A stretch of DNA of 64,000 bases from contig CAIWXX010000053.1 of the NCBI GenBank assembly GCA_903916735.1, positions 26,260 through 90,259 on the forward strand, given 5' to 3'. The position numbers and the translations under genes were made by a program. The stretch comes from an uncultured Acidobacteriota bacterium. GTDB taxonomy: Bacteria > Acidobacteriota > CAIWXX01. This document shows, piece after piece, positions 11,063 through 32,951 of this stretch. The notes beneath the pieces were generated by a model, which did no database searches, was not told the DNA's origin, and was given only the letters and a program-made list of their open reading frames with translations. Numbering within the stretch: position 1 is the stretch's first letter; every line of letters starts with the position of its first letter.

Positions 11063-13120
11063 CTAGCCGCCGGCTGTACGCTGGAAACGACACTTCCCCC
11101 GTCGACCGTCCTGCGTTGTGAAACTCCCATCGATCGCATCCCCATGCACTCCTCCTGCAACTCGAATGACATTGAAGGGCGAGACGGCAGGAAGGTTGAT
11201 CTCAACTCGAACGTCACCGCCGAGTATCAATCGGCCTTGAACGCCATGGATTGTCGGGGGAGACCAGCGAATCCCCTGCGGCCGGATTTCCTCAATCAAG
11301 GCGGTACCACTGAGGGATGCTCCATGCTGATTGAGTTCTAAGCGCAGATGATGCCTAACATTCTCGCCCTCCGATGAGAAGATATTCTCAAGTTCGCCGT
11401 CCCACCGACCAGACACTGAGCCAAAGCTGGAGGGTATCTCCCAAGAGGCCTCCTGGATCTGATCTCGTTCACCGACCGTGAGCGTCTGAACATCATCGGC
11501 TCCAGGACATCCCATCCCTCCAACTTCGATGTTGCGATCATGAAGCCGCTGAAGCACAATCCGCATTCCCGACGAGGACGGAAGAATCGATGGCACCTGC
11601 CCCTTGCCAAAGAGATTTAGCAGCTCGTTGAGAACCATCACATTCCAATACGGTATCATGATGGATTCTCCTGAGAATCGACTACGGCTCTTGGCGAGTG
11701 CAAGCGACGCTACAGTCCACCGGGCAGCTTCAAGAGAGCCGCTGAGAGAGCCGCCGAGCGCGGTGAGAGCAGGAGCCGATCCTGCCTCTCGGACCTCAAA
11801 CCTCACAGTCGGGTCGGTCTGTGCCTTCTGAAAAGCCGTCTGGAGAGCCTGAATGGTTTGCTGGATATTTCTCGGTCGTGGAGCTCCGGCAGCAGACGGC
11901 GGAGGACCTTCAACAAAAAGCGCCGTACCGAGCGGATGACGGATCTCCCATACTCTATCCGCAATATAGGATGCTGTGAACTCCATGGCATAGCACGGGG
12001 CATCGCGCGGGCGGATCTTCATCATCACTGGAGGCGACGACCAGTCACTCATGCGCACTTCAATTTGAGCATCCACGGTCGAATTTCGCGTGATCACAGG
12101 GACACGGCACTGTATCAATACCGGCGTCGAACTGATGACAGGAGCGCTCATCTGACCGATCTGGATCCGAACATTATCCGGTGTCGCAGTGAAGCCTGTC
12201 CCTTCGATGCTGACTGTCTCCCCGACGGCCGCCTGGATGGGGTTAACATTCCGTATCTGCGGAACAACATCATATTGGATCGGTTGTTCAAAAAGAATAA
12301 TGCCTTTCTTCTCGACACGGACAACAGTGGATCGGGTGCCGAGTTCTCCGCTTTCCAATTCCGGCACCGTCAGCTGTATCTCTCCAGGTGTCATTGAATC
12401 GATCCTGGCTTCATGCCCTTGGATCAGGATCTTGAGATTTGAAGCCGGAGTGATCTCAGGCCCTCGCAGTGTCATCTTCCAACCGGATTGCACCTTGAGC
12501 GGTTCAACGCGGACGGACTGCCACGACTTTTGAGTCGTCTGCGTACCGACAACAAACCAGATTCCGATTGCAACGGCGGCCAGGACAGCGCTTCCCAGCG
12601 GGATCCACACAACTGGTTGCTTGAAAAAATGAAAGAACCCCTGCCGGGTAGGGGTCACTGAAAGCGCCCGGGGCACTTGAGATTCAGGCGGAGAAACCGC
12701 TCCGGCGACCGCCGGAATCAAACGACTAGAAATGACCCCGGATGAAGTCGCCGGCTTCTCATCCTCGGTCAATGCATCCAAGAGAACAGTGCTGGGATCT
12801 TCAAATTTGAGGAGAAGAGGAACCGCCTCTTTCGTCTGGCCGACGCGCACAGTGTCTCCAGACCGCAATGTGATGCGTTCCTGAATCCGGCGATCATTCA
12901 CCCACGTTCCGTTGGCAGTCTGGAGGTCTTCGATATGAACACCGGATGCATCGCAATAAATGCGAGCATGCTGACGTGACACCGAGGGATGCGGGATGAC
13001 TATTTCGCACACAGCCTGCCGCCCGACTTTTAACTCCTGCCCGGGCTCAATCTCATGTGTCCGCAAAGCAGTGGCATTTTCGAGGACAAGAAAACGAGGG
13101 TTCAGACTCCGGGGTTTCAT
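11063..13120 (-). CDS. sctD: T3SS inner-membrane ring protein SctD-like (YscD/PrgH family): cytoplasmic FHA, one TM, periplasmic domains including an IPT/TIG-like fold
   Basis: N-terminal FHA (KVGRQAVCEIVIPHPSVSRQHARIY...TANGTWVNDRRI). TM VVWIPLGSAVLAAVAIGIWFVVG. IPT-like NVNPIQAAVGETVSIEGTGF. Last gene of the T3SS cluster, translationally coupled (ATGA) to the FHA gene upstream. Confidence 0.6.
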   Translation of the reverse strand: MKPRSLNPRFLVLENATALRTHEIEPGQELKVGRQAVCEIVIPHPSVSRQHARIYCDASGVHIEDLQTANGTWVNDRRIQERITLRSGDTVRVGQTKEAVPLLLKFEDPSTVLLDALTEDEKPATSSGVISSRLIPAVAGAVSPPESQVPRALSVTPTRQGFFHFFKQPVVWIPLGSAVLAAVAIGIWFVVGTQTTQKSWQSVRVEPLKVQSGWKMTLRGPEITPASNLKILIQGHEARIDSMTPGEIQLTVPELESGELGTRSTVVRVEKKGIILFEQPIQYDVVPQIRNVNPIQAAVGETVSIEGTGFTATPDNVRIQIGQMSAPVISSTPVLIQCRVPVITRNSTVDAQIEVRMSDWSSPPVMMKIRPRDAPCYAMEFTASYIADRVWEIRHPLGTALFVEGPPPSAAGAPRPRNIQQTIQALQTAFQKAQTDPTVRFEVREAGSAPALTALGGSLSGSLEAARWTVASLALAKSRSRFSGESIMIPYWNVMVLNELLNLFGKGQVPSILPSSSGMRIVLQRLHDRNIEVGGMGCPGADDVQTLTVGERDQIQEASWEIPSSFGSVSGRWDGELENIFSSEGENVRHHLRLELNQHGASLSGTALIEEIRPQGIRWSPPTIHGVQGRLILGGDVRVEINLPAVSPFNVIRVAGGVHGDAIDGSFTTQDGRRGKCRFQRTAGG

Positions 13121-13845
13121 GAGAGGAGTATGATGATGAGCAGCACAATGGCGCCAAAGAGAGTCACAATGCCAACTGCCTGGAAGACAAATGCCCAGAT
13201 CCGGTAAGCATCGGTCCCTGACGGAAAATCCAGCGTCTGCGCGAGGGCTGAAGGGGGAGTCATCGCGTGGCCATCAAAAGCCGGGCGCGGGGCCACGGGA
13301 ACGTTGCCAATCGGTGTCCCGACACGATGATCATCAATCTGCATCGAGGATGACCGGTAGACGCCCGTCTGGATCTCCCACATCGTTGCAGGCGCATCGG
13401 ACATGTCCGGCTCCGGAGCTGCCGGCTGCAAACGGGGAGTTGCGGCGGATGGCGGCGGCGATTGCAAAGGCGCTTTTGGCTGCGGCGCCGGGGGCGGAGG
13501 GGGAGCCGGTGTCGCTTCGAGGATCGTCGCATCAGGTATGGCTTCCTCAATCCAACGCGCTCGAATCTCGACCGTGCCGATGTGGACGACATCATCGGAT
13601 TTCAGCGCGTGAATCGTCTTGGACGGCAACACCTCGCCGTTAACGACAATTCCGTTTGTACTCCCGAGATCTTCAACGAGGAGATGCGCCCCCTGTCGAC
13701 AGAAACGGCAATGCCGGCCTGACACAAAAGAAAATGGGAGCTGGACATCGTTGCCTTCACGCCGGCCGATGAAGGCCATCTCCTTTTGAAATGTGAGCGT
13801 TTGGCTCCGTCCATCCGGGTTTCGAATCGTCAACTCAAGTGACAC
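13117..13845 (-). CDS. FHA-domain protein, Pro/Ala-rich linker, C-terminal tail anchor
   Basis: FHA: MAFIGRREGNDVQLPFSFVSGRHCRF...STNGIVVNGEVL. PPPPAPQPKAP low-complexity. C-terminal TM IWAFVFQAVGIVTLFGAIVLLIIILLS. Confidence 0.7.
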   Translation of the reverse strand: MSLELTIRNPDGRSQTLTFQKEMAFIGRREGNDVQLPFSFVSGRHCRFCRQGAHLLVEDLGSTNGIVVNGEVLPSKTIHALKSDDVVHIGTVEIRARWIEEAIPDATILEATPAPPPPPAPQPKAPLQSPPPSAATPRLQPAAPEPDMSDAPATMWEIQTGVYRSSSMQIDDHRVGTPIGNVPVAPRPAFDGHAMTPPSALAQTLDFPSGTDAYRIWAFVFQAVGIVTLFGAIVLLIIILLS

Positions 13846-13970
13846 GACACCACCTCACAAGTTCATGAGGCGAGCAGCCTCGATGCAAACACTGCATCCC
13901 GAATTCACAATTGAGGGTTTTCTTGGATTCATTCTTCGCTCGATCAAGTGTAACAGCTCTGTCTCTCACC

Positions 13971-31641: not shown

Positions 31642-32367
31642 TCACCGAAGAGTTGTCGAATTCAGTGGAGGGTTCATGTAGCGTTCGATTGATAGACGAA
31701 GAAGGTGAATCGCTCGCTGATGGAGACGACAGGCCCAGGATCTGGAAACTCCCAGCTGCGCGGCTACTTCCGAGAGACTGAGCCCCTGAAAATAGACAAG
31801 GCGAACGAGATCTGCCTCAGGGCGAGGCAGCTGTTCAACTGCACGGTTCATCTGCTCTGTCCATTCGCGTGCGAGGATCGAAGATTCGCTGCTTTCCTCG
31901 ATGCCTCCGTCAAATTCTGTACTCATGTGACTCAACATGAAGAGCACCACGCCGTCTCGCAGAGATTCCTGCAATGATCCCCAGAGCTGTTCGATCTCCT
32001 GCGAGGCCGGATCGCCATCACCCGATCTCTGAATGTGAAGTTCCTGGAAGCCCCTTGAGAACCGAGCTTTCTCGGCTGTCCGGCGGGAAAGACCGCGTAG
32101 CTTACAGAGGCCGTCAAGTACGGCTCCGCGGATACGATAGTAGGCAAATGTTGAAAACCGATAGCCTGTCTCCGGTCGAAAACGATCGATGGCTTCGATG
32201 AGCCCCACCTGGCCATAGCTGATCAGATCCTCCAGAATCACACATTCGCCGGCCATGTGCCAAACCGAAGCAGCGATTCCGCGAACGAGCCCCTGGTTCT
32301 GGAGGACACGGATATCCCGAGACATATCTACCGAAGCCGAGTCATCCTTCATTGGCAGCGGTTGCAT
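31642..32367 (-). CDS. RNA polymerase sigma factor, sigma-28 (FliA/WhiG) family
   Basis: Region 2: GLIEAIDRFRPETGYRFSTFAYYRIRGAVLDGL. Region 4 HTH: LSEVAAQLGVSRSWACRLHQRAIHLLR. 241 aa. Confidence 0.75.
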   Translation of the reverse strand: MQPLPMKDDSASVDMSRDIRVLQNQGLVRGIAASVWHMAGECVILEDLISYGQVGLIEAIDRFRPETGYRFSTFAYYRIRGAVLDGLCKLRGLSRRTAEKARFSRGFQELHIQRSGDGDPASQEIEQLWGSLQESLRDGVVLFMLSHMSTEFDGGIEESSESSILAREWTEQMNRAVEQLPRPEADLVRLVYFQGLSLSEVAAQLGVSRSWACRLHQRAIHLLRLSIERYMNPPLNSTTLR

Positions 32368-32712
32368 TTATCTCTGCATTTCTCGATAGACTTTTTCAAC
32401 AAGTGCCTGGAAGGATGGGTCGTCTTTGAGAACATCGACAAGCTGCTCGCGCAGCTGCTTCTTGAGGGGTTCCTGCTGAAGGCGCGCTGGAAGATTGTGG
32501 TGCATCCACCAATCGATCACGGCCTCCGACATTGCTTGCGGATTGATGGCTCGATCGGGGCTCGGAGCAAGATGTGACACAATGACATGGAAAAGCTCCT
32601 GAACCGAGGTCGACCTGACAGGCTGGGATGTAGCGCGGGCGGAATTCACGGACTCGGACGCCCCTGTGCCTGCCGGTGCCGGGATATTGGAAGGATCAGA
32701 AATCCGCGACAT
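32368..32712 (-). CDS. small protein translationally coupled to the sigma-28-like gene (candidate FlgM-like anti-sigma factor)
   Basis: 115 aa from MSRISDPS with a strong RBS (GAGGGAGG). S/T/A-rich N-terminal half (…SESVNSARATSQPVRSTSV…). Helical C-terminal half. Stop overlaps the sigma start (ATGA). Confidence 0.4.
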   Translation of the reverse strand: MSRISDPSNIPAPAGTGASESVNSARATSQPVRSTSVQELFHVIVSHLAPSPDRAINPQAMSEAVIDWWMHHNLPARLQQEPLKKQLREQLVDVLKDDPSFQALVEKVYREMQR

Positions 32713-32951
32713 GAACACCTCCCTCTGCATCCAAGGCACATTCACGGATGTGCCACCGACGTTCGCGTGTCCTCTCCGTTCAAAAAGCAAGTCGCAGGCG
32801 CTGCACTATATATCGTGAATCCGGGAAATGAATCCTTCCCCTCAATCCCATATACGAGTCGATAATCTCAATATAAACCTGGGATTTCAAATTGTCCAGT
32901 GGGTCGGACAGGAAAAATTTTCCATTTGCCGAACGCCATGATAACACAAGT

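Follow-up and report, generated by a model that had tools for sequence, protein, structure and literature searches.

A type III secretion cluster with SctF-like needle genes and without a linked secretin, probably of a deep-branching family typical of Acidobacteriota

Introduction

Does a cluster of type III secretion system (T3SS) genes that keeps a flagellum-like gene order, carries needle genes and has no linked secretin encode an injectisome, a flagellar remnant or a machine of a family of its own? The question is raised by a stretch of 64,000 nucleotides (nt) from an uncultured Acidobacteriota bacterium (assembly GCA_903916735.1, contig CAIWXX010000053.1), called the window below, in which 24 co-oriented minus-strand genes occupy positions 11063-32790 with short gaps and four overlaps of 4 nt. 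In the accepted scenario, injectisomes arose stepwise from flagella; the Myxococcales systems, without secretin and needle, are the only known intermediate, and the order of gains is inferred (PMC3459982). Abby and Rocha inferred that the earliest non-flagellar T3SS had SctF, which the Myxococcales later lost, and a 2012 survey placed non-flagellar T3SS in Proteobacteria, Chlamydiae and Verrucomicrobia only (PMC3459982). In the literature searched, we found no dedicated description of a non-flagellar T3SS from Acidobacteriota. We consider it probable that the cluster encodes a deep-branching, needle-bearing non-flagellar T3SS, secretin-less in cis, and that it represents a distinct family typical of Acidobacteriota.

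Results

The export apparatus is non-flagellar

Components were identified with Pfam and NCBIfam models scored against their curated cutoffs. All eight core genes of TXSScan and of Abby and Rocha (sctJ, sctN, sctQ, sctR, sctS, sctT, sctU and sctV) are co-localised on one strand. Apart from sctJ, which is listed with the ring proteins, the genes of the export gate, ATPase complex and sorting platform are as follows.

13971..16166, minus strand: SctV export gate (TIGR01399 hrcV 777 against a cutoff of 692; FlhA 664, under its 772)
16293..17366, minus strand: SctU switch protein with NPTH autocleavage motif (PF01312, 367 bits)
17599..18456, minus strand: SctT (PF01311, 178 bits)
18692..18958, minus strand: SctS (PF01313, 77.7 bits; start supported, with an 88-amino-acid (aa) call in locus L087)
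19109..19810, minus strand: SctR (TIGR01102 yscR 233 against a cutoff of 208.6; FliP 194, under its 217)
19807..20151, minus strand: FliO homologue (PF04347 33.5 against a cutoff of 22; one transmembrane (TM) helix and a C-terminal beta region)
20180..21757, minus strand: SctQ with N-terminal FHA domain (FHA 70 bits, FliMN_C 36.9 bits, TIGR02551 SpaO_YscQ 52 bits)
21938..22852, minus strand: SctP/FliK-type ruler with T3S4 domain (PF02120 Flg_hook 51.3 against a cutoff of 29.8; HpaP weak)
22928..23449, minus strand: SctO/FliJ stalk (PF16789 YscO-like 82.4 against a cutoff of 27; TIGR02473 FliJ 58.1 against 50.45)
23500..24903, minus strand: SctN ATPase with Walker A motif GGGKST (TIGR02546 608.5 against a cutoff of 604.75)
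24953..25615, minus strand: SctL/FliH stator (PF02108 85 bits; PF06635 24.6 against a cutoff of 23.3; TIGR02499 77.3 against a cutoff of 78.7)

SctV, SctN and SctR pass injectisome cutoffs and fail flagellar ones, and the view of a first-pass annotation of this DNA, that the system is non-flagellar and no flagellum is encoded, was borne out. Among proteins in the PDB, SctV reached 598 bits with LcrD/SctV and 366-402 bits with FlhA. An exact-match look-up with the SctV sequence turned up no record. SctN scored 612.6 on the FliI clade 2 model, under its cutoff of 629.8, and SctU stayed just under the cutoffs of both the FlhB (339.7) and the SctU (335.1) model. The T3S4 domain of SctP, together with the NPTH motif of SctU, implies a length-controlled filament and a substrate switch.

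The order originally reported, (E)-F-G-I-GNAT-J-(K)-L-N-O-P-Q-fliO-R-S-T-U-V-FHA-D on one strand, is right from 29807 downwards. It is of flagellar type, colinear with fliF-G-H-I-J-K-(MN)-O-P-Q-R-flhB-flhA, and the colinearity with Yersinia yscE-L plus yscN-U that had been pointed out is real as well. The core of the first gene inventory of 11063-32790 stood, and four genes in the upstream 2.8 kb (29951-32790) had been left out of it: a 140-aa orphan, a sigma factor, a 292-aa protein that is SctF-like at its C-terminus and a TPR protein similar to LcrH/SycD. The open reading frames (ORFs) are intact, tightly packed and partly overlapping. For sctJ, sctR and sctS the start of the longest ORF lies too far upstream; the starts supported by a ribosome-binding site (RBS) are 27408, 19810 and 18958, of which that of sctR is preceded by AAGGAG, and they give a 268-aa SctJ and SctR and SctS of normal size, in agreement with gene calls on related contigs. 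fliO overlaps the sctR start by 4 nt, and L087 has a 114-aa gene in the equivalent place.

The fusion of an FHA domain to SctQ occurs in 7 of the 72 SctQ/FliN proteins of our locus set, all within the Acidobacteriota-type clade, and is also found in L001, L002, L005, L007, L013 and L023. In a large database it amounts to 19 clusters, of which those named are Acidobacteriota.

Secretin and translocon genes are not detected in the window

No ORF of at least 250 aa in the window has a secretin domain, and a YscC+MxiD+HrcC hidden Markov model (HMM) gave no match with E<=1 across all frames of the 64 kb. The same model detected no secretin in 13 of 13 related loci and finds one within 10 kb of sctN in 22 other non-flagellar loci. 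The secretin gene sctC, the ninth mandatory gene of the TXSScan model for non-flagellar T3SS (PMC4793230), is thus missing from the visible 64 kb. Queries with YopN, TyeA, MxiC, LcrV, YopB, YopD, YscK, YscX and YscD returned nothing in the window, and the gatekeeper SctW, the tip protein SctA and the translocators SctE/SctB had no Pfam or NCBIfam match in the cluster; as these proteins evolve fast, their absence is unproven. The terms injectisome-type and complete, under which the cluster was first described, are therefore too strong, with no secretin, pilotin, gatekeeper, tip or translocon detected in 64 kb.

Flagellum-specific genes of the FlgB/FlgC/FliE type, forbidden in the TXSScan model, are absent from the window. 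FlgB/C/E/G, FliE/G/M/D and MotAB from Granulicella, Paenibacillus and E. coli, used as phmmer queries, gave no match there, and the only flagellar C-ring parts in the window are the FliN-type domain of SctQ and a probable remote relative of FliG.

Needle-family proteins, an inner rod candidate and TPR partners

Upstream of sctJ lie the genes of a needle module.

28371..28844, minus strand: SctI-like inner rod protein, 157 aa (PF17001, E 5.6e-4; TIGR02497, E 9e-4)
28910..29311, minus strand: TPR protein, encoded between sctF and sctI in the slot of YscG/CdsG/HrpB1 (PF09613 HrpB1_HrpK 42.5 against a cutoff of 29.3)
29347..29607, minus strand: SctF-like needle subunit, 86 aa, C-terminus …AIRNFK (by profile-profile comparison)
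29951..30499, minus strand: LcrH/SycD/SicA-like TPR protein of class II chaperone type (TIGR02552 LcrH_SycD 51.4, cutoff 104.8)
30524..31402, minus strand: 292-aa protein with SctF-like C-terminal helix, …VIRNIR (PF09392, E 0.0027, residues 238-291)

That an SctF homologue is present, as had been claimed, is supported by profile-profile comparison: in hhalign, the Acidobacteriota-type alignment of the 86-aa protein (A1) matched a second alignment (A2) at 96.4% and E 1.3e-9 over the C-terminal 62 columns. A2 was reached by iterative search and consists of short proteins encoded upstream of sctJ in loci of Chlamydiae, Desulfovibrionaceae, Verrucomicrobia and Planctomycetes, 9 of 10 of which match PF09392. 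Against the PDB, the Acidobacteriota-only profile A1 found no needle protein and gave chance matches only. The profile of the 86-aa protein also recruited the 292-aa protein, which has a Gly/Met/Gln-rich N-terminal two-thirds, no TM segment and a 289-aa homologue in L002. It has the C-terminal helix in common with the 86-aa protein and reads as a second needle-family subunit, possibly one that extends the filament or forms its tip. Its gene is followed by that of the LcrH-like TPR protein, which a Yersinia LcrH query matches at E 3.7e-4, and the pair recurs in L002 and L006.

The second TPR protein scores under the cutoffs of the SctY, CdsG and HrpB1 NCBIfam models, and its slot is filled also in L002, L005, L018 and L033. 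SctI homologues stand directly upstream of sctJ in L002, L005, L006, L007, L013, L018, L023 and L033.

A ring lipoprotein, an unusual SctD-like protein and three FHA domains

Three further genes encode membrane proteins, two of which, with SctQ, carry FHA domains.

11063..13120, minus strand: bitopic SctD-like protein (FHA domain in the cytoplasm, TM helix, two IPT/Ig domains, one alpha/beta domain, 8-stranded beta-barrel)
13117..13845, minus strand: tail-anchored FHA protein, 242 aa (FHA 61.7 bits; C-terminal TM segment at residues 215-242)
26602..27408, minus strand: SctJ inner-membrane ring lipoprotein, 268 aa (PF01514 85 bits; TIGR02544 146.5, cutoff 162)

SctJ combines a lipobox (LVTSC) with a TM helix at the C-terminus. 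Its longest ORF reaches 27675; the start at 27408 has a GGAGG RBS and agrees with a 268-aa gene call. In the PDB it is closest to PrgK, MxiJ and EscJ, with PrgK first, and on the FliF model the protein scores 52.7 bits against a cutoff of 130, so that its earlier description as a YscJ/PrgK-type lipoprotein was correct.

The assignment of the gene at 11063..13120 to SctD is borne out in part: similarity to known SctD is limited to the FHA domain and the TM helix, and the periplasmic part is unlike known SctD. A model from a 25-sequence alignment (mean predicted local distance difference test score, pLDDT, 85.5) shows the FHA domain at residues 9-107, a disordered linker, the TM helix at 169-194, two IPT/Ig domains, the alpha/beta domain and the C-terminal 8-stranded barrel. 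The barrel is avidin-like, and the periplasmic domains replace the usual ring-building motifs; the equivalent protein in L003 has PEGA and TPR domains instead. The gene of the tail-anchored FHA protein overlaps that of the SctD-like protein by 4 nt, is translationally coupled to it and is kept in L002 and L087.

In the SctD-like family alignment, residues typical of FHA domains that bind phosphothreonine are conserved: R34 is nearly invariant, and S46, H51 and N70 are invariant or nearly so. By their sequences, the three canonical FHA domains (SctQ, tail-anchored protein and SctD-like protein) point to a putative phospho-threonine control of the sorting platform. No Ser/Thr kinase was seen in the 64-kb window. 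In Edaphobacter aggregans, a Ser/Thr kinase with TPR repeats (L023:1238-3844) is encoded ∼3 kb upstream of the T3SS sigma gene. This kinase is a candidate for the partner of the FHA domains; its presence beside a related cluster supports the idea of phospho-threonine control.

The protein in the SctK position is probably a diverged FliG derivative

25612..26592, minus strand: 326-aa all-helical protein in the SctK/FliG position between sctJ and sctL (no family match)

The gene had been labelled sctK, a label for which no SctK signal was found: the protein has no YscK or OrgA match, and hhalign against YscK/MxiK/HrpB4/NolU gave 0.1%. It has only five homologues among 5.8e9 proteins and occurs on ENA assemblies ERZ14268xx. 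A chain of profile comparisons leads from it to FliG. With the K-slot proteins of L005, L006, L009 and L011 it aligns at 91.7% and E 8e-7 (hhalign); these in turn reach 98.6% with the K-slot protein of L003 and 90.3% with a FliG alignment, and the L003 protein reaches 94.7% with FliG, scores above the Pfam gathering thresholds of FliG_M and FliG_C and matches YscK faintly (E 0.021). In hhalign, no protein of this chain is SctK-like (0.1%). By this transitive homology, the K-position protein is probably a very diverged FliG derivative.

L003, a relative within the same SctN clade, encodes a bona fide FliG and a bona fide FliM (L003:8120-9076 and L003:12822-13796). They have as neighbours genes for a short SctJ, an SctI, a protein with an SctF domain and a ring-like FHA-PEGA-TPR protein, which makes the locus a flagellar/injectisome mosaic.

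A clade outside the flagellar clade and nearest to it

The closest SctN, at 87% identity, is that of L001, a metagenome-assembled genome (MAG) of Acidobacteriota, followed by L002 from Thermoanaerobaculia at 72%; SctN proteins of Pyrinomonadaceae, Bryobacteraceae, Ca. Sulfopaludibacter, Edaphobacter aggregans DSM 19364 and unclassified MAGs are 60-65% identical. In the relatives the genes run (sigma)-I-J-(K slot)-L-N-O-P-Q-(FliO)-R-S-T-U-V; their SctJ is short, and phmmer found no FliG, FlgC or FliE in them. On the JGI metagenome contig L087, the order N…V-FHA-D is repeated and then followed by unrelated genes.

Trees were built by neighbour-joining from simple distances with 100 bootstraps. 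In the SctN tree, bootstrap support is 93% for the Acidobacteriota-type clade and 92% for the flagellar one. The split between {Acidobacteriota-type plus flagellar} and {Ysc, Planctomycetes-Verrucomicrobia-Chlamydiae (PVC), Desulfovibrionales-type, Hrp2, Inv-Mxi} received 71% with SctN, 95% with N+V and 100% with N+U+R+T; in the trees that include it, Rhizobiales-type RhcN falls with the classic families. The N+U+R+T tree recovers flagellar monophyly at 100% and Acidobacteriota-type monophyly at only 42%. The Acidobacteriota-type clade is outside the flagellar clade and is the nearest non-flagellar lineage to it. Placement of SctV and SctN relative to the flagellar clade was the test that the first-pass annotation had set itself: the position outside that clade held (flagellar monophyly 92-100%), yet flagella are the nearest neighbour.

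The flagellar locus of Granulicella tundricola (L084) is a separate system, whose FliI is 46% identical and groups elsewhere. It is complete and canonical, lies on the 476-kb plasmid pACIX901 and served as flagellar outgroup from the same phylum.

Among the nearest SctV proteins from outside Acidobacteriota are those of L088 and L089 (P0107, P0079), orphan sctV genes with no other T3SS gene closer than 10 kb. Ser/Thr kinases abound on their contigs, and one of the orphan genes adjoins that of an FHA-PLD protein.

A FliA/WhiG-like sigma factor in the cluster

31642..32367, minus strand: sigma-70 family factor, FliA/WhiG-like, sigma-28 type (Pfam Sigma70_r2 and r4)

The top NCBIfam match of the sigma factor is TIGR02479 FliA_WhiG with 109.8 bits, under the cutoff of 189.6. 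A homologous gene lies just upstream of sctI-sctJ in L005, L006, L007, L013 and L023 and elsewhere in the loci L003 and L011. Searches of 15 intergenic regions for a sigma-28-like promoter and for enriched k-mers gave nothing firm; the 14 occurrences of ATCGA, with 5 expected, do not reach significance once corrected. Scans for sigma-70 promoters and terminators stayed near chance.

About 800 nt past the cluster end lies a gene for an RsbW-type anti-sigma kinase (HATPase_c_2, 9563-10264), abutted by an 87-aa ORF without match. Partner-switching control of the cluster's sigma factor by this kinase is conceivable.

Discussion

We thus return to what the cluster encodes. Flagellum-like traits have been kept in FliO, in the gene order and in the below-cutoff FliA/WhiG-like sigma factor; the FliG-related protein in the K position, with its transitive evidence, would be a fourth. 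The lineage fits the SctF-bearing early state predicted by Abby and Rocha. We favour, as the probable reading, a needle-bearing non-flagellar T3SS family of Acidobacteriota without a secretin in cis.

A number of points weigh against this reading. All results are computational, drawn from sequence, and only 64 kb of the genome are visible, so that secretin, translocon and effectors may lie elsewhere. The 86-aa SctF-like protein has no direct Pfam, NCBIfam or PDB match, and the matches of the SctI-like protein are confined to its C-terminal 40-50 aa and stay under every curated cutoff. In L001, the nearest relative, the region upstream of sctJ (L001:1-7066) holds a gene for an outer-membrane barrel like that of TonB-dependent receptors instead of a needle module, so that the needle genes have either been lost or lie elsewhere. 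Compared directly, the K-position family and FliG show no significant match (E 0.08), the link to FliG being transitive only, and an AlphaFold2 (AF2) model of the protein from five sequences is unusable (pLDDT 46). The trees contain few flagellar and no Myxococcales sequences, and long-branch effects could create the position on the flagellar side; an SctV tree with 145 additional representatives leaves the position of the Acidobacteriota-type clade unsettled.

The needle-bearing family can be pictured as a working machine in the following way. The FliA-like sigma factor would drive the cluster operons. SctJ and the FHA-TM-Ig protein would build an inner-membrane ring around the export gate, and FHA-SctQ, the K-position protein, SctL and SctN would form the sorting platform, which the three FHA domains may couple to Ser/Thr phosphorylation. 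SctI and SctF would be exported first to give a filament whose length is measured by SctP, after which SctU, through its NPTH motif, would switch to later substrates, the long SctF-domain protein among them. At the outer membrane, the filament might use an unlinked secretin or another machine, or might not cross at all.

A bolder version, which we offer tentatively and would not bet on, takes the Acidobacteriota-type systems as a living pre-secretin stage of injectisome evolution, predicted but not found by Abby and Rocha: flagellum-derived, with an SctF needle and dedicated chaperones, and still using FliO, a sigma factor of FliA type and an adaptor derived from FliG. If this were true, the series of K-slot proteins, from the bona fide FliG of L003 to the barely recognisable protein of the window, would document the origin of SctK from FliG, and FHA-SctQ would be an alternative docking of the sorting platform to an FHA-bearing ring protein.

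Another explanation, which we regard as unlikely, is a system like the needleless T3SS* of Myxococcus, with basal body and sorting platform, which would export into the periplasm and borrow a secretin-bearing machine of the Tad, type IV pilus (T4P) or type II secretion system (T2SS) type to reach prey or medium. The Myxococcales T3SS*, as described, is non-flagellar too, and secretin, tip and translocon are missing from its cluster (PMC3459982; Herrou et al. 2025, PMC12075869); both systems have FliO (PMC12248157), export gate, ATPase, SctJ and SctI, and both are placed beside the flagellar root, the Myxococcales by report (PMC3459982) and the Acidobacteriota type in our trees. Tad pili with secretin have moreover been reported in Acidobacteria (PMC4793230). 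However, the SctF-like genes with their chaperones and the SctP ruler argue for a real filament, and the window holds no Tad or pilus genes. The epithet needleless does not suit a cluster with two SctF-family genes. Compared by description only, the Acidobacteriota cluster differs from the Myxococcales systems in its SctF-like subunits and TPR partners, which the latter are without, and further in the FHA-SctQ fusion, the FliG-related K-position protein and the Acidobacteriota host.

We also think it improbable that the locus is part of an ordinary contact-dependent injectisome that injects effectors into eukaryotes such as protists or fungi and whose secretin, pilotin, gatekeeper, tip and translocator genes would, as in Chlamydiales, lie elsewhere in the genome. 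The cluster does have genes for needle, rod, ruler and switch and for an LcrH-like chaperone, SctV, SctN and SctR pass injectisome equivalogs, scattered T3SS loci are known in Chlamydiales (PMC3459982), and 64 kb is all that is visible. However, all 13 related loci are without a secretin over 10 kb, unlike the 22 other non-flagellar loci, no protein like YopN/TyeA/MxiC, LcrV or YopB/D is detectable, the clade is separate from all classic families, and the periplasmic part of the SctD-like protein is without the canonical secretin-facing ring domains.

Comparison with individual families shows how far the likeness goes. With Ysc (Yersinia pYV, L081), the cluster has in common the orders E-F-G-(H)-I-J-K-L and N-O-P-Q-R-S-T-U, the best solved match of SctV and YscO-like and LcrH-like components. 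It differs in that YscC, YscW, YopN/TyeA, LcrV, YopB/D and YscX/Y were not detected, YscK and YscE are undetectable, sctD lies at the far end of the cluster with a different periplasmic domain, and the clade is separate in all trees. The Chlamydiales T3SS (CdsD/CT664, CdsF/G) has a secretin, scattered loci and no FHA domain on SctQ, and forms a separate clade. The order TPR133-SctI-SctJ-K-L-N-O is identical in the Hrp2 hrpB operon (Ralstonia, L083: hrpB1-hrpB2-hrcJ-hrpB4-hrcL-hrcN-hrpB7), whereas Hrp2 has HrcC and another arrangement of U, V, Q, R and S and stands on the other side of the tree.

Last, a flagellar export apparatus or the decaying remnant of a flagellar locus is largely refuted and very improbable: gene order, FliO and FliA-type sigma factor are common to the cluster and the flagellar loci (fliF-fliR/flhBA; Granulicella L084, Paenibacillus L071), as are the FliJ-model match, the FliK-type domain and, in the K slot, a protein probably derived from FliG, the clade is next to the flagellar one and L003 keeps FliG and FliM, but there is no FliF-type MS ring, rod, hook, filament, Mot stator, FliE or FliM, a needle subunit and a 268-aa YscJ-type lipoprotein taking their place, the FlhA, FliP and FliI equivalog cutoffs are all failed, the flagellar FliI of the Granulicella locus is only 46% identical and groups elsewhere, and the intact ORFs are shared by several Acidobacteriota lineages.

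A needle-bearing Acidobacteriota family with ruler and chaperones but no linked secretin would fill a gap in the flagellum-to-injectisome scenario and, through the FliG-related protein in the SctK slot, would make the origin of SctK testable. It extends the non-flagellar T3SS to one of the most abundant soil phyla, in which Edaphobacter aggregans DSM 19364 is a cultured carrier for study.

Window-specific genes and genomic surroundings

27647..28315, minus strand: GNAT acetyltransferase between sctI and sctJ (PF13302 35.1 against a cutoff of 25.4)
29604..29807, minus strand: 67-aa orphan in the YscE position (by position and size only; overlaps the SctF gene by 4 nt)
32368..32790, minus strand: 140-aa orphan ORF (S/P/A-rich N-terminal half; 0-nt gap to the sigma gene)

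These three genes are window-specific, without homologue in any fetched locus. The 67-aa ORF, once called YscE-like, had no match in Pfam, NCBIfam, the phmmer queries or the fetched loci, and the name falls with it. The 140-aa orphan had no Pfam or NCBIfam match and no homologue in 87 loci; a role as anti-sigma factor or secreted regulator is speculation. Its C-terminus and an ORF upstream of the sigma gene in L005 have in common the motif DDPxxQxxxE(K/R); apart from this short motif, phmmer detected no conserved small ORF upstream of the sigma gene.

A recent genomic island was considered and rejected: GC content is uniform, tRNA genes are absent and the flanks consist of housekeeping genes, all of which argue against it. 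Two spacers are unusually long: that between sctT and sctU has 232 nt (17367-17598) and that between sctS and sctT 235 nt (18457-18691), while their counterparts in L001 measure 42 and 130 nt. The sctT-sctU spacer holds a 77-aa ORF with no meaningful match. Upstream of the first gene of the cluster, an intergenic (GA)9 dinucleotide repeat occupies 32952-32969. Context genes elsewhere in the window (49819-51621, 40936-42360, 43367-45005 and 48365-49219) comprise one for a tungsten-type aldehyde:ferredoxin oxidoreductase, which hints at an anaerobic host, one for a sigma-54 response regulator beside HtrA, one for a WD40 protein adjoining a Toprim-domain protein, and one for a C39-like peptidase.

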